A DNA stretch of 64,000 nt from an uncultured Holophagae bacterium (GTDB taxonomy: Bacteria > Acidobacteriota > Thermoanaerobaculia > Thermoanaerobaculales > Sulfomarinibacteraceae). The DNA lies in NCBI GenBank assembly GCA_963801995.1, contig CAWDGW010000017.1, forward strand, positions 669,544 through 733,543. Direction: 5' to 3'. The position numbers and the translations under genes are program-made. Of the stretch, positions 486 to 63,890 are shown piece by piece. Every line of letters starts with the position of its first letter. The first letter of the stretch is position 1. The notes under the pieces were generated by a model, which was not told the origin of the DNA, ran no database searches, and saw only the letters and a list, made by a program, of their open reading frames with translations.

Positions 486-513
486 GAATTGCGAATTGCG
501 AATTTCGAATTCC
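486..513. repeat. 7-bp tandem array GAATTGC GAATTGC GAATTTC GAATTCC
   Basis: Read directly, 42 nt after the stop at 444. A 24-nt core (488-511) is identical to 1193-1216. Confidence 0.9.
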
Positions 514-649
514 CCTACCGACCTATTCCGAAGTGCCGTCCGAGGTCGCAATTTGCGATGTGCAATGCAACCACAAGGGACGCGGGCGGAGGGCGACGGA
601 TTCGGTAATCCCCTCGCGCCTTCGCGACCTTCGCCATTCTGTCATTCGA

Positions 650-1171
650 GTGCGTCCGCCCTCGGACCGGTGGAGACTCGATGACCGCATTGCCAGATGT
701 CTCGTCGCCGGACTCGGCAACCCCCTGATGGGAGACGACGGCGTCGGGTCGGCCGTCGTCGAACGGCTGTCGGCAGGCGTTCCACTCGCCGGCCTGCGGG
801 CGGTCGAGGTCGGCCCCGACGTCTCCCGGCTCCACCAGTTCTGGGAGGGAGAACCGGTGGTTTGGCTGGTGGATGCCATCGATCTCGATCGGCCGCCGGG
901 CTCGATCCGCCGGATCTCTCATGACTGGCTGCTACGGTTGGAGGCGCAGAACGAGTCCGCTCATGGGCTCGCCGTGACGGAGAATCTGCGGTGGCTTCTC
1001 CACGGCTGCCCCGACCTCACCGCGGTCCGATTCACTCTGTGGGGAGTCGTTCCGCAGTACATCACACCTTGCCCCGCTCTGTCGCCTACCGCTGATCGAG
1101 CTGTCGATCAGCTCGTGACTCAGATTCTCCACGCCTGGCGAGGGACGATCGAGGGAGGCCTCCGCGGCTGA
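650..1171 (+). CDS. hydrogenase maturation endopeptidase (HoxW/HycI/HybD family)
   Basis: LVAGLGNPLMGDDGVGSAVVERL matches the N-terminal GNxxxxDDGxG signature of this family. It lies directly downstream of a large-subunit gene. The ORF-track start at 533 looks too far upstream; GTG at 650 is the first plausible in-frame start (uncertain). Confidence 0.7.
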   Translation: MRPPSDRWRLDDRIARCLVAGLGNPLMGDDGVGSAVVERLSAGVPLAGLRAVEVGPDVSRLHQFWEGEPVVWLVDAIDLDRPPGSIRRISHDWLLRLEAQNESAHGLAVTENLRWLLHGCPDLTAVRFTLWGVVPQYITPCPALSPTADRAVDQLVTQILHAWRGTIEGGLRG

Positions 1172-1191: not shown

Positions 1192-1218
1192 GATTGCGAA
1201 TTGCGAATTTCGAATTGG
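1192..1218. repeat. 7-bp tandem array (GATTGC GAATTGC GAATTTC GAATTGG)
   Basis: Lies 21 nt after the stop at 1171. It is the inverted partner of the array at 1306-1336. Confidence 0.9.
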
Positions 1219-1305
1219 CGGCGTCCGAGGTCGCTGAGGTTGTCCCGAGATTCCTCGTTGCGTCGAGCGACACCCTGATGCACCTCTGCGATCCCGGTAG
1301 GCCAC

Positions 1306-1336
1306 AATTCGTAATTCGTAATTCGCAATTCGCAAT
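1306..1336. repeat. 7-bp tandem array AATTCGT x2, AATTCGC x2 (reverse-complement family of GCGAATT)
   Basis: The reverse complement of 1313-1336 matches 1193-1216 at 23 of 24 nt, giving a long inverted repeat around a 96-nt spacer. Confidence 0.9.
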
Positions 1337-6479: not shown

Positions 6480-6551
6480 TCGCCGATCATCCATCAACCC
6501 GGGGGCCAGGCTCGTCCTGGCCCCTTTTCTTGGGCTCCAATAATCATGTCT

Positions 6552-6581
6552 CCCGAAACCCGAACCCCGAATCCCGAAACC
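6552..6581. repeat. 7-bp tandem array CCCGAAA CCCGAAC CCCGAAT CCCGAAA (complement of the GGGTTCG family)
   Basis: Lies between the large subunit and the protease gene. It has four C3-4 runs with 3-4 nt spacers. Confidence 0.9.
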
Positions 6582-6586
6582 GTACA

Positions 6587-7123: not shown

Positions 7124-7498
7124 ATGAAGCTGACCGAATTTCATGAACGCTTGCTGATCATTCTGATCGCGCTTCACAGCGCCATCATCGGTGTGGTTTT
7201 CATCTTCGCACCCAACTGGCTGATGCAGTTCGGCGGCTGGACCGGCATCGACCCGATCTTCTTCGGCCGCCAGGCAGGCGCCTTCCACCTCGTCCTCGCC
7301 GGGGCCTACTTGATCGAGCACTTCAAGTACCGGGGCGTGACCATCCTGGTTTCCGCCAAGACTTTTGCGATGGTCTTCCTCTTGGTTTGCACCTTTGTCG
7401 ACTCCTTGCCCTGGGCTGTGCCCGTCTCCGGAGTCGGCGACGCCCTGATGGCGCTCGTCGTTTTGGTTGTTCACAAGACAGTGCAAAAAATCCAGTAA
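7124..7498 (+). CDS. small hydrophobic membrane protein, unknown function
   Basis: 124 aa with about 4 hydrophobic segments. ATG is 3 nt after the hybD-like stop, so it is probably co-transcribed. No motif recognised. Confidence 0.5.
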   Translation: MKLTEFHERLLIILIALHSAIIGVVFIFAPNWLMQFGGWTGIDPIFFGRQAGAFHLVLAGAYLIEHFKYRGVTILVSAKTFAMVFLLVCTFVDSLPWAVPVSGVGDALMALVVLVVHKTVQKIQ

Positions 7499-7508: not shown

Positions 7509-7549
7509 CAATTCGGAATTCGGAATTCGGAATTCGGAAAACCGTCCCC
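7509..7549. repeat. dispersed element: (GAATTCG)x4 followed by GAAAACCGTCCCC
   Basis: Lies 11 nt after the stop at 7498. 7510-7549 is identical over 40 nt to 36415-36454, and an inverted, slightly diverged copy sits at 28274-28308. Confidence 0.9.
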
Positions 7550-9242: not shown

Positions 9243-9371
9243 ACTTGGCCATGATTGTACACAGCATCGCCGCCCACCCTCCCACCCGCATTCGAAAAGC
9301 GCCCCCACCTCCCACACTTTTCGAAGATATTCGGACACGGACTGACTGGGGCTTTGGGATCTCGGATGCCG

Positions 9372-9406
9372 TGAATTTGAAATCTGGAATTTGGAATTTG
9401 GAATTT
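9372..9406. repeat. 7-bp tandem array (TGAATTT GAAATCT GGAATTT x3)
   Basis: Lies in the divergent intergenic region between the SDR gene and hypA. Confidence 0.85.
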
Positions 9407-9858: not shown

Positions 9859-10682
9859 AGCAGGTGGTGACGGTGAAGCGGAGGGCCCTGGCGGCCAGTG
9901 AGGAGTGCGCAGATGTCTTGCGCCGTCGCTTCAAGGAATCGGGAACCCTGGTTGTCAACTTGATCTCGTCCCCTGGCTCGGGCAAGACCACTCTTCTCGA
10001 GGCGACCGTGGCACGGCTCAAGGATGCCTATCGGTGTGCCGTGGTGGAGGGGGATGTGGCCACCGAGAGGGATGCCGATCGGATTCGGGCCCTCGGCGTT
10101 CCAGCTCACCAGATCCTCACCGGTGGCGGATGCCACCTGGACGCCCGGCAGGTCGACAAGGCGCTCGAGGAGGCCCCCCTGCTGCCGGCCGACATCCTGT
10201 TCATCGAAAACGTCGGCAATCTCATCTGCCCGACGACCTACGATCTGGGCGAGGACTTCAAGGTCGCCGTCCTGTCCACCACCGAGGGGGACGACAAACC
10301 CTTCAAGTACCCGGCGATCTTCGCCCGAGCCGAGGTCTCGGTGATCAGCAAGATCGACCTCCTCCCCTACCTCCCCTTCGACATCGAGGCAGTGCGCGAG
10401 CAACTGCGCTCCCTCAATCCCACCGGCACGATCGTCGAAACCTCATCCACCACCGGCGACGGGATCGACACCTGGTGCGACCTCCTCACCGCAACGCCTC
10501 ATCCTCTGAAACGCAGTGCTTCGAACTCAATGCGCCTTCCGGATGCCAGATTGAAGATCTCAAGATTGAGACGATTGTGTTACTCCCGATTGCTCGCAGC
10601 GATGAATTCGGGTGGGTTGCAGGTGGAATTTTCAATTTTCAATTTTCAATTTTCAATTCTCCGCCGGGATCGCCGCAGGTGA
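9855..10682 (+). CDS. hypB: hydrogenase nickel-incorporation GTPase HypB
   Basis: Has the P-loop SSPGSGKTTLLE, the ENVGNLICP motif and SKIDLL. The last ~55 codons are non-conserved-looking and contain the AATTTTC array. The stop TGA (10680-10682) overlaps GTG 10679 of hypF. Confidence 0.85.
   Translation: MKQVVTVKRRALAASEECADVLRRRFKESGTLVVNLISSPGSGKTTLLEATVARLKDAYRCAVVEGDVATERDADRIRALGVPAHQILTGGGCHLDARQVDKALEEAPLLPADILFIENVGNLICPTTYDLGEDFKVAVLSTTEGDDKPFKYPAIFARAEVSVISKIDLLPYLPFDIEAVREQLRSLNPTGTIVETSSTTGDGIDTWCDLLTATPHPLKRSASNSMRLPDARLKISRLRRLCYSRLLAAMNSGGLQVEFSIFNFQFSILRRDRRR
10627..10661. repeat. 7-bp tandem array (AATTTTC)x4 plus a partial unit, inside the hypB 3' end
   Basis: Read directly; translated as EFSIFNFQFSIL in the hypB frame. 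Confidence 0.9.
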
Positions 10683-13021
10683 CCGGAAAGACCACCCGCC
10701 TGCGAGTCATGTGTCGTGGTGCCGTTCAAGGCGTCGGATTCCGTCCGACCGTGCACCGGATCGCTTCCGAGATGGGACTCACCGGATGGATCGTCAACGA
10801 CCCTTCCGGCGTCACCGCCGAAGTGGAAGGTCCTTGCGAGGTGGTCACGACGTTTCCCGACCGGTTGCGGGAAGCCCTCCCACCCCTCGCCAGGGTGGAC
10901 GAAACGGTCACCGAGGAGATCCCGCCCGAAGGGGCGACCGAGTTCGAGGTCAGAGAATCGGCCCAGGGCCGTCGCGCCGGCGCCCTCGTTCCACCTGATG
11001 CGGCCCTCTGTGAGGACTGCCGCCGTGAGATGGAGACCCCAGAGGATCGTCGCCACCGTTATCCCTTCACCACCTGCACCAACTGCGGACCGCGATTCTC
11101 CCTGGTTTTGCGACTCCCCTACGATCGACCCCAGACCGCCATGGGTTGCTTCCCGCTCTGCTCGGAGTGCGAGCGGGAGTACACCGACACCGCCGATCGT
11201 CGATTCCACGCCGAGCCCGTGTGCTGCCCCGCCTGCGGGCCACGGATCTGGTTTCAAGACAACCTGGCGAGGGGATCGCCGAGGGCCAGGAAGCCATCAA
11301 CCGAGCACGGGGCGCCCTGCTCGACGGCGCCATCCTTGCCGTCAAGGGCCTCGGAGGGTTTCAACTGGCCTGCCGCGCCGATCTTCCCGACCCGGTTCAC
11401 ACCCTCAGAGAACGAAAACGGCGGCCCACCAAGCCGTTCGCGGTGATGGTCCGCAATCTTGCCGAGGTCGATCGTCTGGTGTATCTCGATGAGCGAGACC
11501 GCGCCATCATGTCCTCCCCGCGGTCGCCGGTCGTGCTCGCACCCCGACGGGAGCCATCCCCCGTCTGCCAGGACGTCGCCCCGGGGATCGGGGATCTGGG
11601 TGTCATGATCACCACCACGCCCCTGCACGTGGAGCTTCTGGCCGATTCGTCCGTGCCGCCCCTGGTGATGACCTCTGCCAACCTCTCGGAGGAGCCGATC
11701 TGCCGTTCCAATCGTGAGGCCGTCGAGCGCCTTGCGGAAATCGCCGACGGTTTTCTCCTCCACGATCGCGATGTGGTTCGCCGGGTGGACGACTCGGTGG
11801 TCCGCTCGGCCGCCGGCGGGCCCATCGTGTTGCGCCGAGCTCGGGGTTGGGTCCCGGAGCCACTGCCCCTGCCGGAGTCGGCACCGGTGCCATTGCTGGC
11901 CGTGGGCGGCCACCTCCAGGTGACCGCCTGCGTTGCTGTCGACGGCCAGGCGTTCCCAAGCCAACACGTGGGCGACCTGGACTCGGAACCGGCGCGCGCC
12001 TTTCTGCGCGAGGTCATCGAAGGGTTCGAAGATTTCCTCCAGGTCGAGCCCCGGTTGATCGCGGCCGACGCCCACCCCGACTACCCCAGCAGGTGGTTCG
12101 CCGAGGAACTCGCGCGTCGGCGGGACGGGGAGCTTCTTTTGGTCCAGCACCACCTGGCCCATGCCGCGGCCGTGCTCGCCGAGCACGGGCGGTTTCCGTG
12201 CGCGGAGGAGTCGGTGCTGGCCATCAGCCTCGACGGCACCGGATGGGGCCCGGACGGAACCGCCTGGGGCGGAGAATTCCTGCGTCTCGGAGGGGATCTC
12301 GCATGGAGCCGGCCCGGCCACCTGCAGCCACTGCCCCTCGTGGGTGGCGAACTCGCCGTGCGGCAGCCGTGGCGGGTCGCCGCCGGCAGCCCTTGCTTTG
12401 GCGGGCATGGCGGACGACGTGGCTCTCCTGCCCTTGGGGTTGAACCTCGATCCCGCCACGGTCCACCAGGTGTGCGGTCTGTCGGTCACGGGACAGTGGC
12501 CCATGGCCTCCGGTGCCGGGCGACTCTTCGAGGCGGCCGGGGCCCTGTTGGGCCTTGCGACCCACAACGACTGGGAGGGCGAAGCAGCAGTCCGTCTGGA
12601 GGGGCTCGCCGCCAACTGGCCCGATCCTGCCGAACTCTGGAAGATCGAATCGAACTGCTCTGACATCCCGGTGATTCTGCCGTCCATCGGGCTGTTGGCC
12701 GAGGCGGCCCGTCGACTACTCCGGGGCGAACCGCCGTCCTGTGTGGCGGCATCGTTCCACGCCACCTTCTGCGAGCTGGCCGCCCGCCTCGTGATCCGAA
12801 TCTCGCAAGGAGTCAGAGGCCCGGTGGCCCTGGGCGGTGGTTGCCTGGCGAACCGCCTGCTCCGCGAGGGTCTCCGGTCACGGCTCGAGGAGGCCGGATT
12901 CGAGCCCCTGCTGGCCACCTCCATCCCTCCTGGTGACGGCGGCCTTTCCTACGGCCAGGCCGCTCTCGCCTCTGTGGCAACTGCTCGCGGCGTATCGCTG
13001 GCCAGTGAATTGATAGTCTAA
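10679..13021 (+). CDS. hypF: carbamoyltransferase HypF, interrupted by two apparent 1-nt frameshifts (about 11265 and 12380)
   Basis: Has the acylphosphatase domain (VQGVGFRPTVHRIA), two CxxC-x18-CxxC zinc fingers, the YrdC-like KGLGGFQLACRA and the C-terminal Kae1-like PPGDGGLSYGQA. The protein continues across three ORF-track frames (9905.., 11146.., 12161..). The total length of 2343 nt is in-frame overall. Confidence 0.85.
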
Positions 13022-13055
13022 ATTCGTAATTCGCAATTCGTAATTCGCAATTTTC
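13021..13055. repeat. 7-bp tandem array AATTCGT AATTCGC AATTCGT AATTCGC AATTTTC
   Basis: Starts at the last base of the hypF stop codon. Confidence 0.9.
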
Positions 13056-22262: not shown

Positions 22263-22295
22263 CCCGAATCCGAGCCCGAATCCCGAGCCCCGAGA
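22263..22295. repeat. imperfect 7-bp array CCCGAAT CCGAGC CCGAAT CCCGAGC CCCGAGA
   Basis: Lies between convergent genes. It is G-rich (GGGG-type) on the minus strand, 43 nt after the stop of the minus-strand RHH gene. Confidence 0.8.
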
Positions 22296-25454: not shown

Positions 25455-25493
25455 GAGCTTCGGGATTCGGGGTTCGGGGCTCGGGGTTTGGAG
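25455..25493. repeat. 7-bp array GAGCTTC GGGATTC GGGGTTC GGGGCTC GGGGTTT (G-quadruplex-capable)
   Basis: Lies 10 nt after the stop at 25445. Four G3-4 runs are separated by 3-4 nt. Confidence 0.9.
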
Positions 25494-28273: not shown

Positions 28274-28308
28274 GGTTTCCGAATTCCGAATTCCGAATTC
28301 CGAATTTT
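28274..28308. repeat. 7-bp array GGTTTCC (GAATTCC)x3 GAATTTT, an inverted copy of the (GAATTCG)n element
   Basis: Lies between convergent genes. The reverse complement reads AAAATTC(GGAATTC)x3 GGAAACC, matching 7509-7549 and 36414-36454. Confidence 0.9.
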
Positions 28309-32794: not shown

Positions 32795-34002
32795 CGCGAC
32801 CGATCGGTCGTGCTCATCGCTCGAAAAACTCCCCACCCACCACCCTCCCCCGCTTTTCGAGTTTTCCTGATTTTCGATTTTCGATTTTTGATTTTCGATT
32901 TTTGACTATCGTGGGGTTCGGGCACGGCAGGACCGTCGACCCAGAAGACCCCCGGCAATCGCAGCAGAAACTGAAGGAGCGCCTGGTCCACGTTGGGCAC
33001 CCACAACGGCACCCCCCGTCGATGGGCGTCGGCGGCGAGACGCTCAACCAGAAGACCTGCCGGGCGTCCGGCGCCTGCCACGCTCGCGCACCAACCCGGG
33101 ACGCGCAGCGCCGACCCTGCCTCGGCTCCGGTCGAGAGTACGTCCTCCACCCACCCTTCTTCTCCGCTGGGATCCACCAGCCGCCAGGAGAAACCTTGCG
33201 CTGTAGGTCCACCCGGTGTCGCCAGCCAGCCGATTCCAGTGTGCCCCCATGCCTCGGTCGGTGCCCACGCTCCCACCTGCCGCCCGGTGGGCAGCTCCCA
33301 GACCGAGGCGGGAAAACCTGTCTGTGAGGTCTCTGACTGAGTTGTCTCGACCTTCGCCAAAGCCGTCATGGCCACGGCCGCCGCTCCGCAGTGCCCCTCC
33401 CAGGGTCCGCAGAAGACCGCCGTGACGCCCTCCGAGGCCGCTTCTTCGCGGTCGGTCACACCAGCCCAGGTACGATGGATGTCATCAATGTGGGCGACCG
33501 GCAGCAACACCGCCGGCCACGGCAGAACCACCGGCAGAGCGCCCAACTCGACTGCCAATTCGGCCAGGAGGGTCGCCATCCGTCCCTCCCCCACCTGGCA
33601 CCTCCAGAAGGCCCGATTCTTCCAGGTCACCGCGATCAGGCGTTGTTCCGGGGCCGATACCAGGTCCGCGATCCAGGGATCCAACGGCGGTGTCACCCCC
33701 TGGCACACCTCTGCGGCTGCACGGAAGGCACACCCGGCGTCCACCGTGGACGGTGGCAGCCACAGGGCACCTCCGATTCCCAACCGAATCGCCTGAACCA
33801 GAGCGGCGTCGGTGCGAACGGCAATCACCGCCCGGGCGCGTTCCGCTGGAGGGCTCGCTGCCGCTTCCCGCACCCAGGCCCCTTGGGAGTCTTCAACCGC
33901 CACCCACGCCGGCTCATCGGCACCCATGGCCACTGCTTGTTCGATGACCGAACGGATGGCTTTGTTGGACCCCCCGACCTCGGTTCCGATGAGATTGATC
34001 AT
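32791..34002 (-). CDS. hypothetical protein (403 aa), last gene of the surE-pcm operon
   Basis: ATG overlaps the acyP stop (ATGA). No motif recognised. The last ~35 codons run through the GATTTTC array (translated [15 protein letters not shown]). Confidence 0.5.
32852..32906. repeat. 7-bp array (GCTTTTC GAGTTTT CCT GATTTTC GATTTTC GATTTTT GATTTTC GATTTTT GAC)
   Basis: Read directly. It lies inside the 3' end of the minus-strand ORF, about 60 nt after the plus-strand RHH stop. Confidence 0.9.
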
Positions 34003-36413: not shown

Positions 36414-36454
<41 letters not shown>

Positions 36455-36467: not shown

Positions 36468-36492
36468 GTTTTCGATTTTTGCTTTCCGATTC
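36468..36492. repeat. 7-bp array TTTTCGA TTTTTGC TTTCCGA TTC
   Basis: Read directly and related to the array at 32852-32906 (shared GAGTTTTCGATTTTTG). Confidence 0.75.
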
Positions 36493-41974: not shown

Positions 41975-41979
41975 CCCTC

Positions 41980-42020
41980 GGGATTCGGGATTCGGGGTTC
42001 GGGTTTGGGGTTCGGGGTCG
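41980..42020. repeat. 7-bp array GGGATTC GGGATTC GGGGTTC GGGTTTG GGGTTC GGGGTCG (G-quadruplex-capable)
   Basis: Lies 6 nt after the stop at 41974 and has six G3-4 runs. Confidence 0.9.
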
Positions 42021-49600: not shown

Positions 49601-52141
49601 CTCACATCAGATATGGCGGACGACGTGTCCATCATCGCCTTCGTGAGCGACCTGAACGAGCCGGTGGTGCTCTGGCTGCAGCGGGACTACACCATCGCCG
49701 ACGATACGGACCTCTACTTCACCGTGATCCCTCCGCCGCCGCCGCTCTCGCCTCTCGTCCTGCCCGGCCCGAAATCCTCAAGCTACATGCCCGGCGAATG
49801 GCCGTTCTGCTCGAACCCCGGATTACAGGTCATGAAGGAGCTCCCACCCAACATACCCTTTGTGGGCGGCCACTGGGGGTGGAAGGTCATCGGCAGCGGA
49901 TGTGACGCCTTGACCAGCTGCAACCCCCTGATTTCCCCAAACTGGACCATCAAGGTCCCACTCGGGTCGCTAACGAATTTCAACGCCACTGCAGCCTTCA
50001 GATTCCAGTTCAACACCGAACCTTGCGAATGCAAGTATTTGCTCAACGAGGCCCGGATCAGCGCACAAAACGTCGGGGTCAACCTCTCTGTACCGGTTTA
50101 TGCGGTACCGCTCATCGCCGGAGACGTTCCACTCGGTATCGCGACACTGGCGGTCGGAATCGGAGCCACCCTCAACGGAAACCTCACCTGGCACTCGAAC
50201 TTCCCGATTCTGGGCGCGAGCGAAGGGGTTCTCGGCTTGGGTGTCGGGTACGCGATCGAAGGAAAAGTAAACTTCTTTTTTGGGCTCGACGGCACCGTCA
50301 CAGGATCGGCAACGATCTACTGGTCCCAGAGCCAACCCGATTACGACATCAAATTCACCGGAGAGTGCGTCAGGCTCCTCGGCGTTGCCGCGATGGGATA
50401 CGGGCTGGTCAGCGAGCCGTACTGCATCCAGTGGGGTTCGTCGTGTCCTCCACAGGCCGGCTGCCCGGATTCCCCTCCGCCAATCGAAGAAATGACCTAC
50501 CAGGGTCCCAACGGCCTGGCGTCATTGGGCTCGGAAACCGAGATGTTGGATGACCAGTTTCCCGTGGCATGGCAGGTCGAGTACGTCAAGGACCCGTTGA
50601 TCGGCACCGGGTCGACCTACGAGGGCGCCCCGGTGCTCGGAGACATCTCAGGGGACATATACACCGATGGTCCCCCTGAAGTTGCAGCGTCCGGAACCAG
50701 CGAGTACCTGGCGGCCTGGGCGAAGGCCGAGGAGGCGCACGTGCTCGGCGCCAAGGTCTGGGCCTCAAGCTTCAACGGCACCACCTGGTTGACACCGGTC
50801 GCCATCACGCCAGCTACAAACCTCATCAAGGACCCAGCGGTGGTGTTCGATTCTGCCGGTGAACCCATCGCCGTATGGTCGGAGGCCTCCAACGCCGGCC
50901 TCGACTTCGACACCAGCCCGGTGGAAGACATCCTCGCTGCCATCGAGCTTGCCGACATTTTTTTCTCCCGGCGTATCGGAGGGGTTTGGACCGCGCCGTC
51001 GCTGGTCGCCGCCCCGGCCGGGCGCGACGAGCAACCCGCCATCGCGGCCGACGCGACAGGCGCCGCCGCACTGGCGTGGCTCAACCAGTCCGCGGACGGG
51101 GGCTGGACTCTCTTCGCGTCTCTCTGGAACGGCAGCACCTGGTCCTCTCCCGCGGCGGTGGCCACTCCGCCGATCGCCTACCGGCCCCGGGTCTTTTACC
51201 AGGGGGGTCAGCCGATTCTCCTCTGGACCCAACCGCCGACCGACGAGCCGCAATCGGTCTCCGGATGGCGGCTGTACTCCTCGACCTGGGACGGGGTCGT
51301 GTGGTCGGATCCCACTCCGGTGGAACCGCAGGCTCCTCCTGACCTTCCACCCGCGCCCCTCGGCGAAACCGAGTACGACCTGCAGCTCCCGGATCCGCCG
51401 CCGCAGTGCTGTCTGGAAAGCTGCGACGACCCGCTGCCCGTCGATCCACCGCCGGTCCAGCAGGATGAACTGGAGACAGCTTCGGTACCGGTCGTTGCCA
51501 GCAACGACCCCAACGAAAAGGTCGGTCCCGCTGGGGTCGGTGATGGTCATTTCATCGCTGCAGGTGACCCTCTTGATTACGTCGTGTACTTCGAAAACCT
51601 CCCTGCCGCCAGTGCTCCGGCCCAGGAGGTCTTTGTCACCGATTGTCTCGCCTATGAGCTCGACTGGAACTCTGCAACCCTGACCGAGGTCGCCTTTGGA
51701 GAGGTGGTGATCGCGAACCCGGGCCAACATGGCGTATTCAATGCTCGGGTCACCGTTCCCGACCACAGACCGGCCGTGGACCGGGACTGGTGGGTCGAAA
51801 TGTCAAGCCACCTGGACCTCGCGACCGGGTGCGTGGAGGTCGTATTCCGCACCCTCGACCCCGACACCGGTGAGCTGCCTGACGATCCCTTTGCAGGCTT
51901 CCTGCCTCCGGAGGACGGCACCGGACGGGGCCAGGGGCACATCGCCGTGTCGGCGGACTCGAAGCCCGACCTGGTGGACGGCACCGTCATCACCAATCGT
52001 GCGTCGATCATATTCGACATCAACGACTCCATCATCACCAACGAGGTCTTCAACACGATTGGTGATCTGGAGCCGACGCTTCCGTTCTACGACGGATTCG
52101 AGTCCGGCGACACCTCGGCCTGGTCGCGGACGGTGCCGTAG
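46619..52141 (+). CDS. giant secreted multidomain protein 1 (1840 aa), tagged
   Basis: Signal-like RAFAAMLALLSSGTIWAQ; the true start may be downstream of 46619 (for example TTG near 46760). Then ~8 PQQ-like propeller repeats (SSPAIxxDGTIYVGS..LYAINPDGxLxW). The mid-region domains are labelled from motif appearance only: a PPC-like domain, an Ig-like domain, a CarboxypepD_reg-like domain (ISGTLRN..GDYELWIDGYY) and W-rich propeller-like regions. Next come a Cys/Gly-rich module (49799-50470) and a DPNEKVGPAG...IIFDINDSIITNEVFNTIG domain. Ends ..FYDGFESGDTSAWSRTVP*. Confidence 0.8.
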   Translation: MTHDPGSHPATRRISDSSRQPGTLARPLRSRVRLGKGCASSISWIRGLRAFAAMLALLSSGTIWAQTAGTLKWEYVTASWPFGSPTLATDGSIYITTWAFWPGLYAVNPDGTEKWVYLPGWDVQATPAIAPDGTAYFGLESQDWVHAVRPDGTRRWRAAVEADSYASPAIARDGTVYFGTEWYSENNLYAFNPDGTLEWTRDTGGHVYSSPAIASDGTIYVASDDMYLDALNPDGSLRWRFEFATSGSGSDFASSPAIAADGSIFIGSQNRNLYAINPDGSLRWTYFFGSPVFASPVIGPDGAVFVGTNNGIMNAINPDGTLRWQFPTGDSLRSSSAVGSDGAVYFATAYSGTLYCVDAGGTLQWTFPVGECYMSSPLIGPDGTVYIGGFRSLYAIHSDSPGPAHSPWPMFRQNVRRTGRSERYLTPLSIGETVQTIIPRYGVHDYSLDTIAGESLLVTVEPGAGATGLVLSSQAGTLAQTSDSPAASGHYELLITPTVESGYVLSVFGADVDENGGDYSITANYVTHHASEVEPQIAGNFGEASVVISGLGFVDPMQVQLTGPGSLSAFSTTTASPTELLARFDLAAAPTGIYDLTVTWPDATWVTLSAAFEVVPGTGPEYEAHLRVPEGVRAARQYVAWLEYANTGDTDLPAPLFTVRSNTSISLDPDQIDRNRVEILGVGGPTDPSVLHPGESRRVPVYFMAPGSGMAEFELFETIDDSQPINWADHKDEMRPPDMDPSLWDIIWPDLIARLGVTWSDYLDVLRSDASRLQRAGRRAYDVGQIIALEVGLATGDPVTTISGTLRNAASYEPLAGITVRLRSTDGSSIAETETSYAPPGYFLFEEVADGDYELWIDGYYVDPVPSVFMAGSDITGVELLAHEYDPAPVLSEEEIPQHAPSITMDDAGVAYMVWQEGPELRSAINTAGVWTDAGPIPGAEGSMPTVVWDATLLDGGTSPGLFAAWQSGGPVSTIQWSLGRPVGGDIQWTTPESLTSDMADDVSIIAFVSDLNEPVVLWLQRDYTIADDTDLYFTVIPPPPPLSPLVLPGPKSSSYMPGEWPFCSNPGLQVMKELPPNIPFVGGHWGWKVIGSGCDALTSCNPLISPNWTIKVPLGSLTNFNATAAFRFQFNTEPCECKYLLNEARISAQNVGVNLSVPVYAVPLIAGDVPLGIATLAVGIGATLNGNLTWHSNFPILGASEGVLGLGVGYAIEGKVNFFFGLDGTVTGSATIYWSQSQPDYDIKFTGECVRLLGVAAMGYGLVSEPYCIQWGSSCPPQAGCPDSPPPIEEMTYQGPNGLASLGSETEMLDDQFPVAWQVEYVKDPLIGTGSTYEGAPVLGDISGDIYTDGPPEVAASGTSEYLAAWAKAEEAHVLGAKVWASSFNGTTWLTPVAITPATNLIKDPAVVFDSAGEPIAVWSEASNAGLDFDTSPVEDILAAIELADIFFSRRIGGVWTAPSLVAAPAGRDEQPAIAADATGAAALAWLNQSADGGWTLFASLWNGSTWSSPAAVATPPIAYRPRVFYQGGQPILLWTQPPTDEPQSVSGWRLYSSTWDGVVWSDPTPVEPQAPPDLPPAPLGETEYDLQLPDPPPQCCLESCDDPLPVDPPPVQQDELETASVPVVASNDPNEKVGPAGVGDGHFIAAGDPLDYVVYFENLPAASAPAQEVFVTDCLAYELDWNSATLTEVAFGEVVIANPGQHGVFNARVTVPDHRPAVDRDWWVEMSSHLDLATGCVEVVFRTLDPDTGELPDDPFAGFLPPEDGTGRGQGHIAVSADSKPDLVDGTVITNRASIIFDINDSIITNEVFNTIGDLEPTLPFYDGFESGDTSAWSRTVP

Positions 52142-52175
52142 GGGTCGAGGTTCGGGGCTCGGGGTTCGGGAGCGG
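52141..52175. repeat. 7-bp array GGGGTCG AGGTTCG GGGCTCG GGGTTCG GGAGCGG
   Basis: Begins at the last base of the giant-1 stop codon. Confidence 0.9.
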
Positions 52176-55500: not shown

Positions 55501-58139
55501 CTCTACTACCAGGCCGTTGGTCTCTCCGGGGTTACTGTCAATGATCCCTTCTTCGACTTCGCTTCGATGGCAAGGGATCCGGGCGACTGGCCCTTCTGCT
55601 CGAACCCAGGGCTGAAAGCTCTGTCCGAGCTCCCACCCGGCATTCCCATCATCGGTGGCCACTGGGGGTGGAAGGTCATCGGCAGCGGCTGCGCCCCGCT
55701 CACAACCTGCAATCCGGTGCTCACGCCGAATTGGGATATTGAGATCCCGTCTGGGGCAGCTCGCCAAGTTCGTCGGCAACGCCGGCTTCACCTTCAAGTT
55801 CCAGATCGATCAATGCCCGTGTTCCTACATGCTCCACGAATCCGCCATCAATGCCGGCATCGGGATCAACATCGACGTGCCCGTGGCCGAGGTTCCCCTC
55901 ATTCTCGGCAAGATCCCGGTGGGATACGCCATAGCTACTCTCGGCGTGGCTGGCAACCTCGGAGGCAGTCTGATCTGGCACTCGAATTTCCCAATCCTGG
56001 GTTCCAGCGACGGCGTCCTCAACCTCGATGTCGGCTACGTTGTGACCGGAAAGTTGACCTTCTTCTTCGGTGGCCTGGAGGGCAAGGTCACCGGAGACGC
56101 AACGGTCTATTGGACACAACAGCAACCCGACTACGGCATCAGATTCCTTGGGGAATGCGTCCGACTCATCGGGACAGCATCATCCGGATTCGGGGTCCTC
56201 GAGGAGAATTACGGGATCCAGTGGGGATCCAACTGCCCGCCGCTGCCCACCATGGGAACCGAGGGAATCCGTTTTGACTTCGCAACATCCAGTGATTCAC
56301 GAGACGTCCAAGTCGAGTCACAGATCGAGTACGTGAAAGCTCAATTGGTGGGAACCGGCACGATCCTATGAGGGAAACCCGGTTCTCGGCGACATCTCGA
56401 CTGATCTCTATATCGACGGCCCACCCTCCGTGGCTGTGAGCCCAACCGGAGGTTCTCTCCTCGTCTGGGCAAAGGCCGAGCAACACCAGAACCTCGGAGC
56501 CAAGATCTGGGCATCGAGCTACACGGGAACCGGCTGGTCGACACCAGAGGCCATCACTCCGTCAACGAATTTCGTCAAGGACCCATTCGTCGCCTATGAC
56601 TCGAACGGCAACGCCATGGCCGTGTGGTCCGAAGCCTCCAATGCCGGCCTCGATTTCAATACGAGCTCGGTGGAGGACATCGCGGCGGCGGTCGAGATCG
56701 CCGACATCTGGTACGCACGGCACACCGGAAGCGCGTGGTCGTCACCGGCCCGCCTGGCTGATCTGCCGGGCCGAGACGAGCAGCCGCACCTTGCCCGTGG
56801 TCCGTCGGGGCAGATCGCCGCAACCTGGCTCAACCAGGACGACCTCGGCGATTGGGCGCTCTACGCCGCGATCTGGTACGGATCCTCATGGTCCACACCC
56901 ACCATCATCGCGACACCACCCATCGCCTATCGCCCACTGGTGTACTACCAGGGCGGATTTCCTACGGTTCTCTGGAGCCAGGCCGATCCCGACGTCCCCG
57001 AATCGTTCAACGATTGGAAGCTCTACTGGTCCTCGTGGAACGGAGTGTCCTGGTCCGAACCTGAACCGGTGGGACTTTCCGGATCAACAAAAACCACTGA
57101 AGCTCCTACAGGTCCTGACTCGATGCTGGATCTGCAGTTTCCCGATCCTCCCTCCTACTGCTGTCTGGACAGCTGCGACGATCCTCTGCCCCCGGATCCC
57201 GCCTCCGGCGGCGCCACCCAGATTCCTCAGGGCAACGCATTCTCGCCGGTTGTGGCCTCTGTCGATCCCAATGAAAAGACCGGACCCGCCGGCTCAGGCG
57301 ACGAACACTTCATCGATGCCGGTGACCGGCTGGATTACGTGGTCTATTTCGAAAATCTGCCGGCCGCCGCCGCCCCCGCCCAGGAGGTCTTTGTCACCGA
57401 CTGTCTTGACCACGATCTCGACTGGACCTCGGTCACTCTGGACGAGGTGGCGTTCGGTGATTTCATCGTCGGCAATCCTGGTGCGGAGCCGCTCTTCGAC
57501 ACCCGCATCACCATTCCGGACCACCGGCCTGGCGAAACCAAGGAATGGTGGGTGGACGTCATCACCGACTTCGACCTCGGCACCGGCTGCCTGGACGTCA
57601 TATTCCGCACCCTCGACCCGGTCACCGGGGAGCTGCCGGAGGATGCCTTCGCCGGCTTCCTGCCGCCGGAGGACGGCACCGGCCGGGGCCAGGGACACAT
57701 CAGCCTGTCCGTGGACTCAAAGACCGACCTGGTTGACGGCACCGTCATCACCAACTTCGGCACCATCGTCTTCGACATCAACCAGTCCATCGTCACCAAC
57801 GAGGTCTTCAACACCATCGGCAGCCCGCTGGAGCCGGTGCTCACCGTGAGCCTGGCCGGACCCGGCAGTGGGGTGGTGACCAGCGATCCCCCCGGCATCG
57901 ACTGCGGCGTTGACTGCACCGAGGCCTATCCCATCGCGACGATTGTGGACCTCGAGGCCACCGCGGAGCCCGACTCAGAGTTTGTCGGCTGGTCCGGCGA
58001 TCCGGACTGCTCGGACGGCACGGTGACCATGGACAGCGACAGGAGCTGCACCGCCACCTTCGACCTGCTGCCGTCGCTGCCCTTCTCGGACGGGTTCGAA
58101 TCCGGCGACACCTCGGCCTGGTCGCACACCGTGCCGTAG
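52522..58139 (+). CDS. giant secreted multidomain protein 2 (~1871 aa), tagged; two 1-nt insertions (about 55750 and 56364)
   Basis: Starts MERSVRVCCAVSLLLLLYVPSALAQEPGTVKWVF. It has the same architecture as giant 1. The sequence continues across ORFs 52324.., 55655.. and 56430.., judged by alignment to giants 1 and 3. It carries an extra 81-aa Cys-containing domain (57828-58070) before the tag. Ends ..FSDGFESGDTSAWSHTVP*. Confidence 0.8.
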
Positions 58140-58173: not shown

Positions 58174-58204
58174 TTCTTAGTTCTTAGTTCTTAGTTCTTA
58201 GTTG
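58174..58204. repeat. 7-bp array (TTCTTAG)x4
   Basis: Read directly, 35 nt after the giant-2 stop. Confidence 0.9.
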
Positions 58205-58266
58205 CGAACGGTTGTCGATCGTTCGAATCGTCGAGGCCTGCCGGGGACGAGGCGGTGGGCGGGGGG

Positions 58267-58294
58267 AAATCAAAACTCAGAACTCATAACTCGC
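58267..58294. repeat. 7-bp array AAATCAA AACTCAG AACTCAT AACTCGC
   Basis: Read directly. Confidence 0.8.
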
Positions 58295-58351: not shown

Positions 58352-58380
58352 TTGTCCAGCGTCCAAAACGCTGGTATATT
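58352..58380 (+). promoter_or_regulatory. putative promoter of giant gene 3
   Basis: TTGTCC-N17-TATATT, then the leader CGTTTTCCAAGAAACAACAAGCCAAGAGAGACTGG, nearly identical to the giant-2 leader. Confidence 0.5.
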
Positions 58381-58479
58381 CGTTTTCCAAGAAACAACAA
58401 GCCAAGAGAGACTGGCGCTGCAGATGTTGTTTTCATGGTGCGATAGTGGCTCAGGTATGCAACCGAAAGGACTCGTGCA

Positions 58480-61400
58480 ATGGCCCATTGCGTCCCGACT
58501 CGTGTCGCCCTCACGGCCCTGATCCTGATCAGTTCGACCGTCAGCTCCAGTCAAGAGCCCGGCACCGTGAAATGGGTTTTCAGCCCACCCAATACCTTTG
58601 AGCTCGATACGTCGCCGGTCATCGGCCGTGACGGCACAGTTTACGTAGCCGATCGCTACCTATACCTGTGGGCGCTCAACCCGGACGGGAGTCTCAAATG
58701 GCAGTTCAGCGCCGATGACGGCTTCGAAGCCACTTCACCGGCCGTCGCACCGGATGGAACCATCTACATCGTCGACGACTCACAGAATTTCTATGCCATC
58801 AATCCGGACGGTTCCCTCCGCTGGATGTGGGAAGACCCGGACAACCAACGTTTTGAATCGACCCCGGCCATTGGTCCGGACGGGACCATTTACATCACGG
58901 CCAACGACGACGGAGCCGACAATCTTTTTGCCTTCAATCCCGACGGGACCATCAAGTGGTCGACACAAGCATCGACGTTCATAACCTCATCTCCGGCCAT
59001 CGGCAGAGATGGTGCCATCTATGTCGTCGTGGATGCGAGAATCCTCGAGGTCTTCAACCCGGACGGCACTCTTGCCTGGAGTTATGAGATGGACTCCGAG
59101 GGACACAATTTTTACATAAACTCGTCGCCAGCCATCGGGCCTGACGGTGCGATCTATGTAGGCGGAGGACCATGGACCGATCCGGGGCTCTTCGCCATCA
59201 ATCCCAACGCCACGCTTCGATGGAGGTTCGATTCCCCGTCCGCAATCTACTCATCACCGGCCATTGGGCCCGATGGGACCATTTATGCCGGAACCTACGG
59301 CAACAAGCTGATGGCCGTCCACCCCAACGGAACGCTCCTTTGGGAGCATGGGCTCGGTGGCTCTGTCTACTCTTCCCCGGCGGTCGGATCGGATGGCACG
59401 ATCTATGTTGGTTCGTCGAATGGCTTCATAACAGCGGTCAACCCGGACGGAACCCGACAGTGGCGGCATGAGGGATCCTGCTGGGAGCTCGCAAGCCCTG
59501 CAATCGGCCCGGATGGGACGGTTTACGGGGGTGGACAGCCCTCGTTCTATGCGTTGTACTCAAGCAGCGACGGCCTTGCCAACACATCATGGCCCATGTT
59601 TCAGCAGAACGTCCGCCACACCGGGAAGTGGGAGAACGTGGTCACGCCGCTCGCTGTTGGCGACACCGCCGAAAGCACTGTCCCACCAGGAGGCAATCAC
59701 TATTACTCGGTGGAGCCCGACGCCGATCAAGCCCTGTTGATCGAACTCATGCCCGGGGTGGGCGCCGACGATCTCTTGCTCACCGGGCAGCTCGGCGCCA
59801 CAGTTTTTTCCACCGCGACGCTGACACCGAACGGGACCTACGAACTTCTGATCTCCCCCACGGCCGCGACGCCCTACACGCTGACCATCTACGGTGCCGA
59901 CGTAGGACCAAACGGAGGCGCCTATTCGCTGACGGCTCGGTACGTCGACCACCACCTCAGCGATCTGTCACCTCGGGTAGCAGGCAACGCCGGTGAAACG
60001 CGACTGGGAATCACCGGATTGAGATTCTCCGACCCCATGCAGGTCTCCCTGTCCGGACCCGGCGCAATCGGCGCCACCGAAGTCACGGTGGGATTGGACT
60101 CGGACGTCCTGGCACGTTTCGACCTCACCGGAGCCCCCACCGGCACCTACGATGTCACCGTCACCTGGCCCGACATGACTGAGCGAACCCTCTCAGGGAT
60201 ATTTGAGATCGTGGCCGGCACGGGGCCTCAGCTCGAGGCACAGCTTGTGGCACCCGAAGCACTCAGGGCCTTGCGTCGCTACGTTGTGTGGCTCGAGTAC
60301 GCCAACACCGGCGATGCCGACATGCCGGCTCCCCTTTTCACCGTACGAGCCAACGTGGACGTGTCCCTGGATCACGATGACATCGCGGGGCACAGCGTCG
60401 AGGTCCTGGGCATCGGCGGTTCGGCAAACCCGGATGTGCTGCGGGTCGGCGAGTCCATGCGAGTTCCCATCTACTTCATCGCACCGAATCTGGGAAGCGA
60501 CGCCGAGTTCGAGCTTCTGGAAACTCCGGACACCGGTGAGCCCATCGACTGGCCCAGCCTCAAGGAAGGTATGCGCCCGCCCGACATGGACCCGGGCGTG
60601 TGGGATGCTCTGTGGCCCGATCTGATCGCCCGCCTTGGCGTCACCTGGGCCGACTATCTCCAGGTGCTCAGGGACAATGCGGCGAGGGCCGCATCCTGGG
60701 GCTTTCCCACCCACGATCCATCCGGTCTGATCGATCTCGAGGTGTTGCAGGCGGCCGGTGAACCGCACGCGGCCATCGCCGGCTCGCTTCGCCTCGCGAC
60801 GACCAACGAGCTCCTTCCAGGTGTAACGCTCCGCCTGCGCAGCCTCGACGGCGCTGTGGTCAAGGAAACAGACACCACCTACACCCCTCCGGGCCGGTTC
60901 GTGTTCAACGAAGTGCCGGACGGCAGCTACGAGATCTGGATCGAGGGCTATTACGTGGATCCGGTGATGCAGGTGGAGGTGGTGGGCGCCGACGTGACCG
61001 CGGTGCAACTGATTGGGTACCCGTACGAGCCGGTGGAGCTCTCCGAATTCGCTCTGCCCCAACACACTCCGGCCGTGACAGCGGACGCCGCCGGCACCCA
61101 GTACCTCCTCTGGAAAGAAGGAAACGAGATCTGGTGGGCCATCAATCCGGCGGTGTGTGGACCCACTCAGGCCCGATCCCCGACGCCGACGGTTCGAATC
61201 CCAAGGTCGTGTATGACGATGCTCTGCTGGATGGCGGAATGACCCCCGGGCTGTTTGCCGCCTGGGAGACCAGTGGGATGGAGAGCACCATCGAGTGGTC
61301 GGTGGGTCGATTCGTCTCGGAGGGCATCGAATGGAGCGAGCCCGAAGCGCTGACCTCCGACCTGGCCGACGATTTTTCTATCGACCTGTTCACCGATGCG

Positions 61401-63863
61401 GCATCGGTGCCCGTGGTGCTCTGGCTGCAGCGGGACTACGCGATCAACGACGACACGGACCTCTACTACCAACCCGTCGGTCTCTCCGGAATCGCCGTCG
61501 ATGATCCGTTCTTTGACCTCGACTCGATGGCGCGGGATCCTGGCGACTGGCCATTCTGCTCGAACCCCGGCCTCAAAGCGCTGTCCGAGCTTCCGCCCGG
61601 AATTCCGATCATCGGAGGTCACTGGGGCTGGAAGGTCATCGGCAGCGGCTGTGCACCCCTGACCACCTGTAATCCGGTTCTCACGCCCAATTGGGAGATC
61701 GAGATCCCCCTGGGGCAGCTCGCCAAGTTCGTCGGCAACGCCGGCTTCACCTTCAAGTTCCAACTGGAACAATGCCCGTGCTCCTACATGCTCCACGAAT
61801 CCGCCATCAACGCCGGCATCGGGATCAACATCGACGTGCCCGTGGCCGAGGTTCCCCTGATTCTCGGCAAGATTCCGGTGGGGTACGCCATAGCTACTCT
61901 CGGTGTGAGCCGGCAACCTCGGAGGTGGTCTCATCTGGCACTCGAACTTCCCAATCCTGGGCTCCAGCGACGGCGTCCTCAACCTCGATGTCGGCTACGT
62001 TGTGACCGGGAAATTGACCTTCTTCTTCGGTGGTCTGGAGGGCAAGGTCACCGGAGACGCAACGGTCTATTGGACCCAGCAGCAGCCCGACTACGGCATC
62101 GCTTCCTTGGGGAGTGCGTTCGACTTGATCGGGACCGCGTCAATCGGGATTCGGCGTTCTCGAGGAAACTACCTGATCCAATGGGGATCCAATTGCCCAC
62201 CGCTGCCCAGCATGGGAATTTGAGGGAATGTATATTCCCGTTCGGGAATCCGGTACATCGCGAGACGTCCAAATCGAGTGGCAGATCGAGTACGTCAAGG
62301 CTCAGTTGATGGGACCGGCACGACCTACGAAGGCAACCCCGTGCTCGGCGACATCTCGGCAGACGTCTATATCGATGGACCGCCCTCTGTTGCCGCCAGC
62401 GCCTCAGGAGATGCTCTCCTCGTCTGGGCCAAGGCCGAGCCACACCAGAACCTCGGCGCCAAGGTCTGGGCGTCCACCTACACCGGTACTGGCTGGTCTG
62501 CACCGGAAGCCGTCACTCCGGTAACCGATTTCATCAAGGACCCATTCGTCGCCTATCGACTCAAACGGCAACGCCATGGCCGTGTGGTCCGAAGCCTCCA
62601 ATGCAGGCCTCGATTTCAATACCAGCCCGGTGGAAGACATCGTCGCGGCGACCGAGCTCGCCGACATCTGGTACGCACGGAACACGGGGGCGCGTGGTCC
62701 TCACCGGTCCGGCTGGCTGATCCTCCCCGGCCGAGACGAGCAGCCATCCCTCGCCCGCGGACCCTCTGCACAGATCGCCGCCGCCTGGCTCAACCAGGAC
62801 GACCTCGGCGACTGGGCGCTCTACGCCGCGATCTGGTACGGATCCTCATGGTCCACGCCCGCCATCATCGCGACGCCACCCATCGCCTATCGCCCGCTGG
62901 TGTACTACCAGGGCGGATTTCCTACGGTTCTCTGGAGCCAGGCCGATCCCGACGTCCCCGAATCGTTCAACGACTGGAGGCTCTACTGGTCGACGTGGAA
63001 CGGTGTGTCCTGGTCGACTCCCGAGCCGGTGGGGCCTGGCCGCGCCTTCGGAGGGCACCACGAGACCCGACAGAAGTCGTGTCTCGATGCTGGACCTGCA
63101 ATTCCCGGATCCTCCGTCCTACTGTTGTCTGGACAGCTGCGACGATCCTCTGCCCCCGGATCCTGCCTCCGGCGGCGCCACCCAGATTCCTCAGGGCAAC
63201 GCATTCTCGCCGGTTGTGGCCTCTGTCGATCCCAATGAAAAGACCGGACCTGCCGGCTCAGGCGACGAACACTTCATCGATGCCGGTGACCGGCTGGATT
63301 ACGTGGTCTATTTCGAAAATCTGCCGGCCGCCGCCGCCCCGGCCCAGGAGGTCTTCGTCACCGACTGTCTTGACCACGATCTCGACTGGACCTCGGTCAC
63401 TCTGGACGAGGTGGCGTTCGGTGATTTCATCGTCGGCAATCCTGGTGCGGAGCCGCTCTTCGACACCCGCATCACCATTCCGGACCACCGGCCTGGCGAA
63501 ACCAAGGAATGGTGGGTGGATGTCATCACCGAATTCGACCTCGGCACCGGATGTCTGGACGTCACATTCCGCACCCTCGATCCCGTAACCGGCGAGCTGC
63601 CGGAGGATGCCTTTGCAGGCTTCCTGCCGCCTGAAGACGGCACCGGTCGTGGACAGGGTCACATCAGCCTGTCCGTGGACTCAAAGACCGACCTGGTGGA
63701 CGGCACCGTCATCACCAACTTCGGCACCATCGTCTTCGACATCAACCAGTCCATCATGACCAACGAGGTCTTCAACACCATCGGCAGCCCGGGACCGTCG
63801 CTGCCCTTCTCGGACGGATTCGAGTCCGGCGACACCTCGGCGTGGTCGCGCACCGTGCCGTAG
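58480..63863 (+). pseudogene. giant secreted multidomain protein 3 (~1794 aa if repaired), tagged; N-terminal 2.66 kb intact, then about 12 single-nt indels between 61147 and 63080
   Basis: Starts MAHCVPTRVALTALILISSTVSSSQEPGTVKWVF. It is colinear with giant 2 (offset about 5958 nt) with stretches of 100% nucleotide identity. The conserved protein sequence hops among ORFs 58480.., 61134.., 62002.., 62228.., 62278.., 62576.. and 63003... Ends ..FSDGFESGDTSAWSRTVP*. It may be a real pseudogene or an assembly artefact. Confidence 0.7.
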
Positions 63864-63890
63864 GGGTTCGGGAATCGGGGTTCGGGGGGA
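63863..63890. repeat. 7-bp array GGGGTTC GGGAATC GGGGTTC GGGGGGA (G-quadruplex-capable)
   Basis: Begins at the last base of the giant-3 stop codon. Confidence 0.9.

Follow-up and report, generated by a model that had tools for sequence, protein, structure and literature searches.

The window analysed here is a 64-kb stretch of contig CAWDGW010000017.1 from an uncultured Holophagae bacterium. Short tandem arrays of 7-nt units lie in the gaps between its genes, and the genes next to them have housekeeping or metabolic roles, as with hydrogenase maturation, acrB and peptidases. The initial annotation had listed about 19 such arrays of several sequence families, lying outside genes or at their very ends, and had likened them to the short tandemly repeated repetitive (STRR) sequences of heterocystous cyanobacteria. 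Tandem Repeats Finder (TRF), run on the window with a score threshold of 30, returns 19 period-7 arrays of 3.6-6.6 copies each and recovers every listed position except a degenerate run at 36468, which is discernible by eye only; both the division into several families and the STRR-like label proved apt. The heptamer arrays are real and far above chance. Period specificity is independent of unit sequence, and the arrays are associated with hairpins.

Heptanucleotide arrays of the window

The G+C content of the window is 0.60-0.66. Because spurious open reading frames (ORFs) are abundant at high G+C, genes were called with a codon log-odds model and then corrected by synteny and Pfam matches. 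A single detector of our own, covering periods 4-12 and counting as strict all arrays of at least three units, found 14 period-7 arrays, of which 13 are intergenic. It yielded one, one and two arrays at periods 4, 5 and 6, every one of them coding, and none at periods 8-12. Intergenic DNA amounts to about 11% of the window (6,967 nt) and holds no array at any period from 4 to 12 other than 7; its 13 period-7 arrays compare with 0.000 expected from 300 second-order Markov simulations. The arrays have the properties of heptanucleotide long simple sequence repeats (SSRs): the 7-nt units stand head to tail in runs longer than chance (19 by TRF, 13 strict and intergenic), and period 7 is in excess over the adjacent periods in the window and in related loci.

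The arrays are given here by their positions in the window, without strand. The first, of GAATTGC (3.7 copies, 486..511), lies 41 nt 3' of a stop codon and 21 nt 5' of a hycI-like gene at 533-1171. It shares the identical 24-mer ATTGCGAATTGCGAATTTCGAATT with a second GAATTGC array (3.6 copies, 1193..1217), which lies 21 nt 3' of a stop and forms the left arm of an inverted pair. The right, inverted arm (GCAATTC/GTAATTC, 4.6 copies) occupies 1305..1336 and is directly followed by the G-rich box GGGCGGGTGGGTGG at 1337-1350; the predicted fold of the pair has -83.6 kcal/mol and a z of -3.7, or -6.6 in a second computation. The hydrogenase large-subunit gene is followed by an intrinsic terminator with hairpin and U-tract (6501..6525, plus strand), which is kept in relatives. 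The array 26 nt downstream of it (CCCGAAA/CCCGAAC, 4.3 copies, 6552..6581; C-rich on the plus strand) has the terminator on one side and, on the other, the TACAAT -10 box and start of hycI. An AATTCGG array (4.3 copies, 7510..7539) lies in a convergent gap, 11 nt 3' of a stop, and has the 3' flank AAAACCGTCCCCGATCGG. GAATTTG (4.9 copies, 9373..9406) lies in the divergent gap of an epimerase gene and hypA, and AATTTTC (4.6 copies, 10627..10658) between hypB and hypF, preceded by a G-rich box at 10610-26. The first base of the AATTCGT/AATTCGC array (4.6 copies, 13021..13052) is the last base of the hypF stop codon.

In the remainder of the window, the array of CCCGAAT/CCGAG at 22263..22290 lies in a convergent gap, 18 nt 3' of a stop, and has a TRF period of 13 made up of alternating 7- and 6-nt units. 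TTCGGGG (4.3 copies, 25459..25488), with at least four G-tracts, lies 13 nt 3' of a stop. The array of TTCCGAA (4.3 copies, 28277..28306), in a convergent gap and 12 nt from the stop of a minus-strand gene, reads GAATTCG outward from that gene. TTTTCGA/GATTTTC (6.6 copies, 32854..32902), in the tail of the minus-strand ORF 32791-34002, is preceded by a C-rich box at 32831-53. GAATTCG (4.4 copies, 36414..36444; 3' flank AAAACCGTCCCC, the same as at array 7510) lies in a divergent gap. The degenerate, GTTTTCG-like run of about three units occupies 36468..36490 and has no TRF call at a score of at least 30. TCGGGAT/TCGGGGT (six copies, 41978..42018) starts 3 nt 3' of a stop and ends 13 nt upstream of a TATAAC -10-like box. 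In GGGTTCG (4.3 copies, 52141..52170) and GGGGTTC (3.6 copies, 63863..63887), the first base of the array is also the final base of a stop codon. TTCTTAG (4.3 copies, 58174..58203) lies 34 nt 3' of a stop, and the G-rich box GGCGGTGGGCGGGGG precedes a GAACTCA-like array (3.9 copies, 58266..58292). Five arrays are perfect in TRF: 7510, 10627, 28277, 36414 and 58174.

Among gaps of at least 40 nt, 15-16 of 28 bear arrays; by gap type, arrays occur in three of four convergent, 11 of 19 tandem and two of five divergent gaps. The initial annotation had placed most arrays 0-50 nt after a stop codon, three of them on its last base, and the gene calls agree: 11 of the 19 arrays lie in that interval, and those at 13021, 52141 and 63863 begin at the final base of a stop. 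This placement is not random. The median distance to a gene 3' end is 19.5 nt (P = 0.002 against random placement in the same gaps), and seven of 14 arrays lie within 20 nt of one (P = 0.01, same-gap randomisation). In related loci the median distance after the stop is 16 nt, with 31% of arrays at -2 to +5 nt (n = 119). Arrays 10627 (in the hypB ORF) and 32854 are not strictly outside ORFs and fall within non-conserved 3' ORF tails of low G+C at third codon positions. The frame shift that slippage by 7 bp was predicted to cause is irrelevant to most arrays, being non-coding.

At least seven unit families occur in the window, and their units are mostly A+T-rich. Judged by sequence, four or more G3 tracts can be read in only six of the 19 arrays (the GGGGTTC/GGGATTC family), and the remaining 13 are A+T-rich, with a unit G+C of 0.14-0.43. 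Copy numbers are mostly 3.6-4.9, matching a mode of four units. No common RNA fold was found among the arrays of the window (z from -3.1 to +2.1 by array), nor a common U-tract, and none of these arrays has a match in Rfam 15 at a permissive threshold. Terminator-like sites occur in the window at chance frequency, the one at 6501-6525 alone being convincing, and the arrays themselves do not display the GC hairpin and U-tract of intrinsic terminators.

Three further candidate roles were rejected. As substitutes for terminator U-tracts the arrays have the wrong arm order, and as three-frame stop-codon traps most of their units lack a stop codon on either strand (checked by hand). A promoter architecture of G-box, array, 8 nt, TATACT and leaderless start is not a rule and describes a subset only (rph, hycI, mfp); a -10-like motif 4-12 nt downstream accompanies only about 8% of G-box-bearing arrays.

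In related metagenome-assembled genomes (MAGs), a G/C-rich box (GGGTGGGCGG / CCGCCCACCC) directly abuts 19-26% of oriented array sides (background about 5-10%), and about 40-50% of arrays in related genomes adjoin a GC-rich box. For 78% of box-adjacent cases a hairpin, often a terminator, is predicted with the box as its 3' half. The C-rich box is weakly over-represented in the window as a whole (23 matches vs 15.3 +/- 3.7 expected), where box polarity is mixed or reversed relative to other MAGs (small numbers). Over all loci, neighbouring arrays with related units are inverted in 25 cases and direct in eight.

Arrays in related genomes

The host is not cyanobacterial, as the initial annotation had judged from gene content and G+C; its nearest named relatives are Acidobacteriota MAGs. 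Named homologues of the hydrogenase large subunit are 76-78% identical and come from Holophagae, Thermoanaerobaculaceae and Acidobacteria MAGs. An exact search for (GAATTCG)4 with one genome per species gave at least 109 places. Among the matches listed, most belong to 'Ca. Sulfomarinibacteraceae', Thermoanaerobaculia and Holophagae MAGs, and Chroococcidiopsis, Zarconia, Luteimonas, Verrucomicrobia, Clostridia and others also appear. The Holophagae MAG MFD09964.bin.1.228 has the unit families of the window and also the flank GAAAACCGTCCYCGATCGG.

In 756 kb of MAG loci selected for arrays, period 7 accounts for 278 arrays, periods 4, 5, 6 and 8 for 25, 8, 33 and 16, and periods 9-12 for none. 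The 278 period-7 arrays fall into 67 unit classes, and 134 of them have units that were not selected for. Of 80 hydrogenase-containing metagenome loci sampled without bias (805 kb), only 16 hold period-7 arrays, 35 in all, and these are concentrated in the closest relatives of the window. The comparison with related genomes that had been suggested at the outset found heptamer-only arrays in related MAGs and their absence from some closer hydrogenase relatives. The syntenic locus L110, with a large subunit 93% identical to that of the window, carries arrays. None occur in the 4-22 kb examined of L111, L112 and L114 (large subunit 87-89%) and L113 (85%), nor in the same extent of L115 and L116. 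These two fall into the protein cluster of L110 (P0003/L110), and the nucleotide sequences of L115 and L110 are 85.6% identical. The array trait is patchy, being switched on and off between close lineages. L111, L112 and L114, which lack heptamer arrays, have a hexamer array just 3' of a stop codon (TTCCCG, 4.3 copies, at 13049-13074 of L111), and in L111 it follows the ortholog of the window gene 7124-7498, where the window has its AATTCGG array.

The intergenic DNA of the window does not align with that of L110. Three gaps carry arrays in both, with differing units, and this positional conservation (three of six gaps shared) does not go beyond expectation from the high array density. In the gap between the large-subunit gene and hycI, the terminator hairpin and the -10 box are kept in all relatives. 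The L110 site orthologous to array 6552 holds a single CCGAACCCGG, about 1.5 units, and 12 other lineages have arrays in this gap, built of at least 12 unrelated units. Because the array 6552 is represented by a single CCGAACCCGG in L110 and the lineages have units of their own at the same gap, arrays arise in place and repeatedly, the period being fixed and the sequence free.

Two further elements of related loci were noted. In L013, L075 and L082 a G-box and (CGAATTC)4-5 stand upstream of a conserved TATACT promoter and the RNase PH gene rph, and this element may be a conserved array. In L034, L040, L091, L036 and L052, which are Thermoanaerobaculia-type MAGs, a small hairpin, GGCA(G/C)C(C/G)GTCCCG(G/C)(C/G)TGCC, followed by a G-box stands beside arrays and may be an element of the repetitive extragenic palindromic (REP) kind.

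Known heptamer repeats and the origin of the arrays

The arrays are heptanucleotide SSRs of the class that includes STRR sequences and the Xanthomonas GGGAATC repeats, and they are unusually dense and varied in the window. STRR sequences had been regarded as the only precedent, a view that has to be widened. GGGAATC repeats of Xanthomonas and GGGGA(T/C)T repeats of Nostoc (PMC4692102) and the TAACTGA repeats (PMC4679880) are earlier cases, and a 2007 study described an excess of heptanucleotide repeats across prokaryotes (Mrazek et al., as cited in PMC4679880 and PMC4692102).

STRR sequences resemble the arrays in being tandem heptanucleotides of few families, dispersed in non-coding DNA. Their units are CCCCAGT, TTGGTCA and CAACAGT, none of which is among the TRF consensus units of the window. 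Their hosts are heterocystous cyanobacteria, whereas the window has a G+C of 0.63 and its nearest named relatives are Acidobacteria MAGs. Three STRR heptanucleotides are mentioned for Calothrix PCC 7601 (PMC4692102).

In Xanthomonas, about 90% of the GGGAATC repeats are intergenic and four is the commonest number of units; the repeats lie on average 28 nt from the upstream ORF, the distance to the downstream ORF being 160 nt (Rehm et al. 2015, PMC4692102). They are rare in divergent gaps and form 70-75 inverted pairs per genome. Their G-rich strand is the coding strand downstream of genes and the non-coding strand upstream, their length and sequence differ between sister species, and they have no known function; Xanthomonas campestris pv. 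campestris (Xcc) has 186 repeats per genome (PMC4692102). The Xanthomonas and Nostoc repeats share with the arrays of the window the 7-nt period, the four-unit mode and the intergenic bias. The proximity to the end of the upstream ORF and the strand rule, followed by the G-version of the unit, recur in the window and its relatives. Inverted pairs, frequent in Xanthomonas, outnumber direct ones over all loci here (25 to eight), with one pair (1193/1305) in the window itself. The GGGGTTC/GGGATTC family has at least four G-tracts, like the Xanthomonas and Nostoc units, but G-rich units of the GGGNATC type with that many tracts are limited to six of the 19 arrays. Xanthomonas and Nostoc have one dominant G-rich unit per genome, whereas the window has at least seven families, mostly A+T-rich. 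The window has about 0.30 arrays per kb, compared with about 0.04 repeats per kb in the Xcc genome of about 5 Mb, and its host phylum differs from those of Xanthomonas and Nostoc.

In many prokaryotes heptanucleotide repeats are the commonest long SSRs, with a scattered phylogeny, and a 7-nt contact length of the polymerase and slippage have been proposed as their cause (Mrazek et al. 2007, as reported in PMC4679880 and PMC4692102). The ten genomes richest in 5-11-nt repeats, as given in PMC4679880, include no Acidobacteriota, and polarity, hairpin association and a length mode are absent from the description of the class as summarised in these later papers. TAACTGA arrays of marine Beggiatoaceae, cyanobacteria and Bacteroidetes (2-6 copies, 169 sets per genome; MacGregor 2015, PMC4679880) are, like those of the window, intergenic heptamer arrays with a patchy distribution across phyla. 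They consist of a single unit and lie mostly a few nt 5' of starts, whereas the arrays of the window have many units and lie mostly just 3' of stops; TRF found no TAACTGA arrays in the window. REP elements, the bacterial interspersed mosaic elements (BIMEs) and the products of template switching at quasi-palindromes are intergenic, adjacent to hairpins or terminators, and have inverted arms, as here. REP elements, however, are not tandem heptamers and are conserved in sequence within species, unlike the arrays. We found no literature linking Acidobacteria with such heptamer arrays.

The account that we favour, with middling confidence, is that in-place replication slippage in a 7-nt register, template switching and expression-linked selection together explain the arrays. 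The reading frame cannot account for period 7, because the specificity for it holds in non-coding DNA. From the patterns described above we infer slippage and template switching as the mechanism, a role of the polymerase and a selective filter. Slippage with a strong preference for 7 nt would expand a local heptamer to about four units, and would be stimulated near hairpins. A template switch at a nearby hairpin or quasi-palindrome would then copy the array to the opposite arm and create an inverted pair. Selection would purge arrays from coding sequence and filter their orientation, and probably their length, near stops and starts. A lineage-specific property of replication or repair would turn array formation on or off. 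Template switching at quasi-palindromes is an established mutational process in E. coli, and the excess of inverted over direct neighbours (25 against eight) is expected from it. Slippage favouring 7 nt is itself a published hypothesis for the class of heptamer repeats, as set out in PMC4692102 and PMC4679880.

Several observations weigh against this account. The distribution of array lengths is non-monotonic, being highest at 25-34 bp and dipping at 21-24 bp. Of the 171 array pairs of the window, 37 are at most one mismatch apart, where the null gave 4 on average and 14 at most. The identical 24-mer of arrays 486 and 1193 occurs at unlinked sites, and short flanks are common to the unlinked arrays 7510, 36414 and 28277 and to L032, a Holophagae MAG locus, which shares the flank of array 7510. 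Upstream of rph, unit and position are conserved in three MAGs, and four orthologous Sulfomarinibacteraceae loci have four copies each, in both cases within a set preselected for at least four copies. A flank-anchored metagenome search, made for array 7510 only, found no copy-number alleles. The arrays are also oriented relative to genes: over the 30 nt that follow a stop, GAATTCG is on the sense strand in 39 cases and GAATTCC in three, and within 60 nt before a start the polarity is reversed, with 16 cases of GAATTCG and 45 of GAATTCC. Five further unit families show polarity in the same direction.

The strand polarity weighs against slippage alone, since slippage by itself predicts none. In the window, three of three GAATTCG and five of six GGGGTTC arrays comply with it relative to the nearest gene, eight of the nine testable arrays in all; the GAATTGC family is found in both orientations 3' of stops. 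G-quadruplex formation is ruled out as a general explanation of the polarity rule and the four-unit mode, because both occur in two unrelated phyla, A+T-rich units included.

The foremost alternative, which we regard as unlikely, is a functional platform for multivalent binding. Here a lineage-specific protein whose register is 7 nt or 7 bp would occupy about four units where genes end or begin, with an effect on mRNA 3'-end stability, translation or insulation. Candidates would be a nucleoid protein or a single-strand binder of the cold-shock or S1 type. The preferred length of about four units, found in Xanthomonas too, the polarity, the tight abutment on stop codons in related loci, the small number of unit families per genome and the conservation upstream of rph in three species all agree with a bound site. 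Heptamer repeats of Nostoc modulate the expression of recO and recF in reporter assays, and the cold-shock protein Csp and S1 have been proposed to bind the TAACTGA repeats (PMC4679880). Such a platform is hard to reconcile with dozens of unrelated units (GGGGTTC, AATTTTC, TTCTTAG, AGGCAGT and ACCTAAT among them) within and between close lineages and even at one gap, with close relatives that have the same operons and lack arrays, and with the two orientations of the GAATTGC family. A single sequence-specific ligand is disfavoured because the arrays share no RNA fold, belong to no Rfam family and are unconserved in unit sequence.

Less likely than a binding platform, in our judgement, are selected palindromic elements, long stems of RNA or cruciform DNA that would bracket terminators and the spacers between operons, acting as terminators, insulators or processing sites, with solitary arrays as half-elements. 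Inverted pairs of seven different units, from eight loci including the window pair 1193/1305, all give long predicted stems (z -3.7 to -11.2), and the arms co-vary between lineages at one gap. The chance frequency of canonical hairpin-plus-U terminators in the window and the many inverted pairs of Xanthomonas (PMC4692102) also fit. However, 1193/1305 is the only inverted pair among the 19 arrays of the window, single arrays are unstructured or fold below shuffles (z +2.1 for 6552 and +1.2 for 58174), and an inverted duplication of any origin folds. The order of the arms (U-rich, hairpin, A-rich) is moreover the reverse of that in a bidirectional terminator.

Equally doubtful is a reading in which the arrays are neither passive debris of slippage nor sites recognised by their sequence, but traces left by a dedicated machinery that is horizontally patchy and has a fixed 7-nt ruler. 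One candidate would be a writer of about four units, either a polymerase for repair or translesion synthesis or a complex for end processing, at work where forks stall at hairpins or where transcription and replication come into conflict at gene ends; another would be a multimeric protein that reads four 7-nt registers. Were this true, Acidobacteriota, Xanthomonas and cyanobacteria would all have their gene boundaries marked, in a defined polarity, by machinery of this kind.

Dispersal as small mobile elements, similar to REP elements or to miniature inverted-repeat transposable elements and copied together with a short flank, is more improbable still. A C-rich 3' flank, A(A)CCG(T/A)C(C/T)CC, is common to all three GAATTCG arrays of the window and one array of a Holophagae MAG, the flank GAATGCCGCCCACCC recurs in Thermoanaerobaculia MAGs, unit families are limited, some arms resemble terminal inverted repeats, and copying would also produce the 24-mer common to 486 and 1193. 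The conserved flank spans merely 10-19 nt, though, no transposase is associated, target-site duplications are absent bar one possible GCGAAC at 58174, and one array has an in-place origin while the lineages have unrelated units at one gap.

Contingency loci, in which changes of copy number would switch adjacent genes by phase variation, are very improbable. Array 6552 lies directly upstream of a -10 box and array 41978 13 nt upstream of one, and 7 is not divisible by three, but most arrays lie 3' of stops, convergent gaps included, and the adjacent genes are housekeeping or metabolic rather than the surface or variable genes that carry such SSRs in coding regions or promoter spacers; for Xanthomonas, Rehm et al. 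concluded likewise (PMC4692102). An assembly or polishing artefact, which ORFs split across frames (hypF, 24286-25445, 61134-63863) might suggest through long-read indel errors, has next to no likelihood, as arrays occur in many independent short-read MEGAHIT and SPAdes assemblies and in isolate genomes such as those of Chroococcidiopsis, Zarconia and Luteimonas, with biological patterns of position, polarity and family structure.

Whether slippage, template switching and selection or one of the alternatives applies, the arrays bear on questions standing since 1990-2007, namely the 7-nt preference of bacterial long SSRs and whether STRR-like arrays have any role. The very high array density and the many unit families make this lineage an unusually good test bed. 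Sister genomes have the same operons with or without arrays, and a contrast of their gene contents could reveal the determinant, which might be a factor that binds the arrays or else a variant polymerase or repair protein. On the practical side, gene boundaries are marked by the arrays, which could also serve for typing strains of uncultured Acidobacteriota.

Other elements of the window

Several large secreted-type proteins of the window (PQQ/beta-propeller, DUF7619) end in a C-terminal tail, ...GFESGDT(S/A)AWS..VP*, which looks like a sorting or anchoring tag. It is encoded at 24118-24174, 25389-25445, 52100-52141, 58100-58139 and 63820-63863, with a remnant at 26321-26361. Four GFESGDT-tail stops precede GGGGTTC arrays; because the arrays follow these stops, array and tail were probably duplicated together.

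The genes hypF (10716-13021), 24286-25445 and 61134-63863 are each split over two or three reading frames, and are either pseudogenes or the product of long-read-type indel errors. A dispersed direct repeat of 66 nt, 82% identical, occupies 22841-22906 and 26349-26414, both intergenic, with a weaker third copy near 24190-24230. The only Rfam match of the window is a tRNA gene on the minus strand (22716-22789, 68.9 bits), which lies in a 481-nt gap without an array.

Upstream of three paralogous giant propeller genes, a promoter and leader of the form TTGTCM-17-TATATT followed by GTTTTCCAAGAAACAACAAGCNAAGAGAGA are conserved (46450-46520, 52296-52370 and 58352-58425). Starts that look leaderless are found at hypA (TATACT-N6-GTG, 9451-9465), at hycI (TACAAT-N7-ATG, 6583-6598) and at the epimerase gene, where TACAAT stands just 5' of the start (9240-9259); TATACT-N6-ATG starts also occur in the related MAG loci L086, L108 and L005. 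Perfect or near-perfect putative G-quadruplex motifs (e.g. GGGTGGGAGGGTGGG) lie at 9262-9290 (minus strand), 1337-1350 and 32831-32853 (minus strand), in promoter-proximal or array-adjacent positions.

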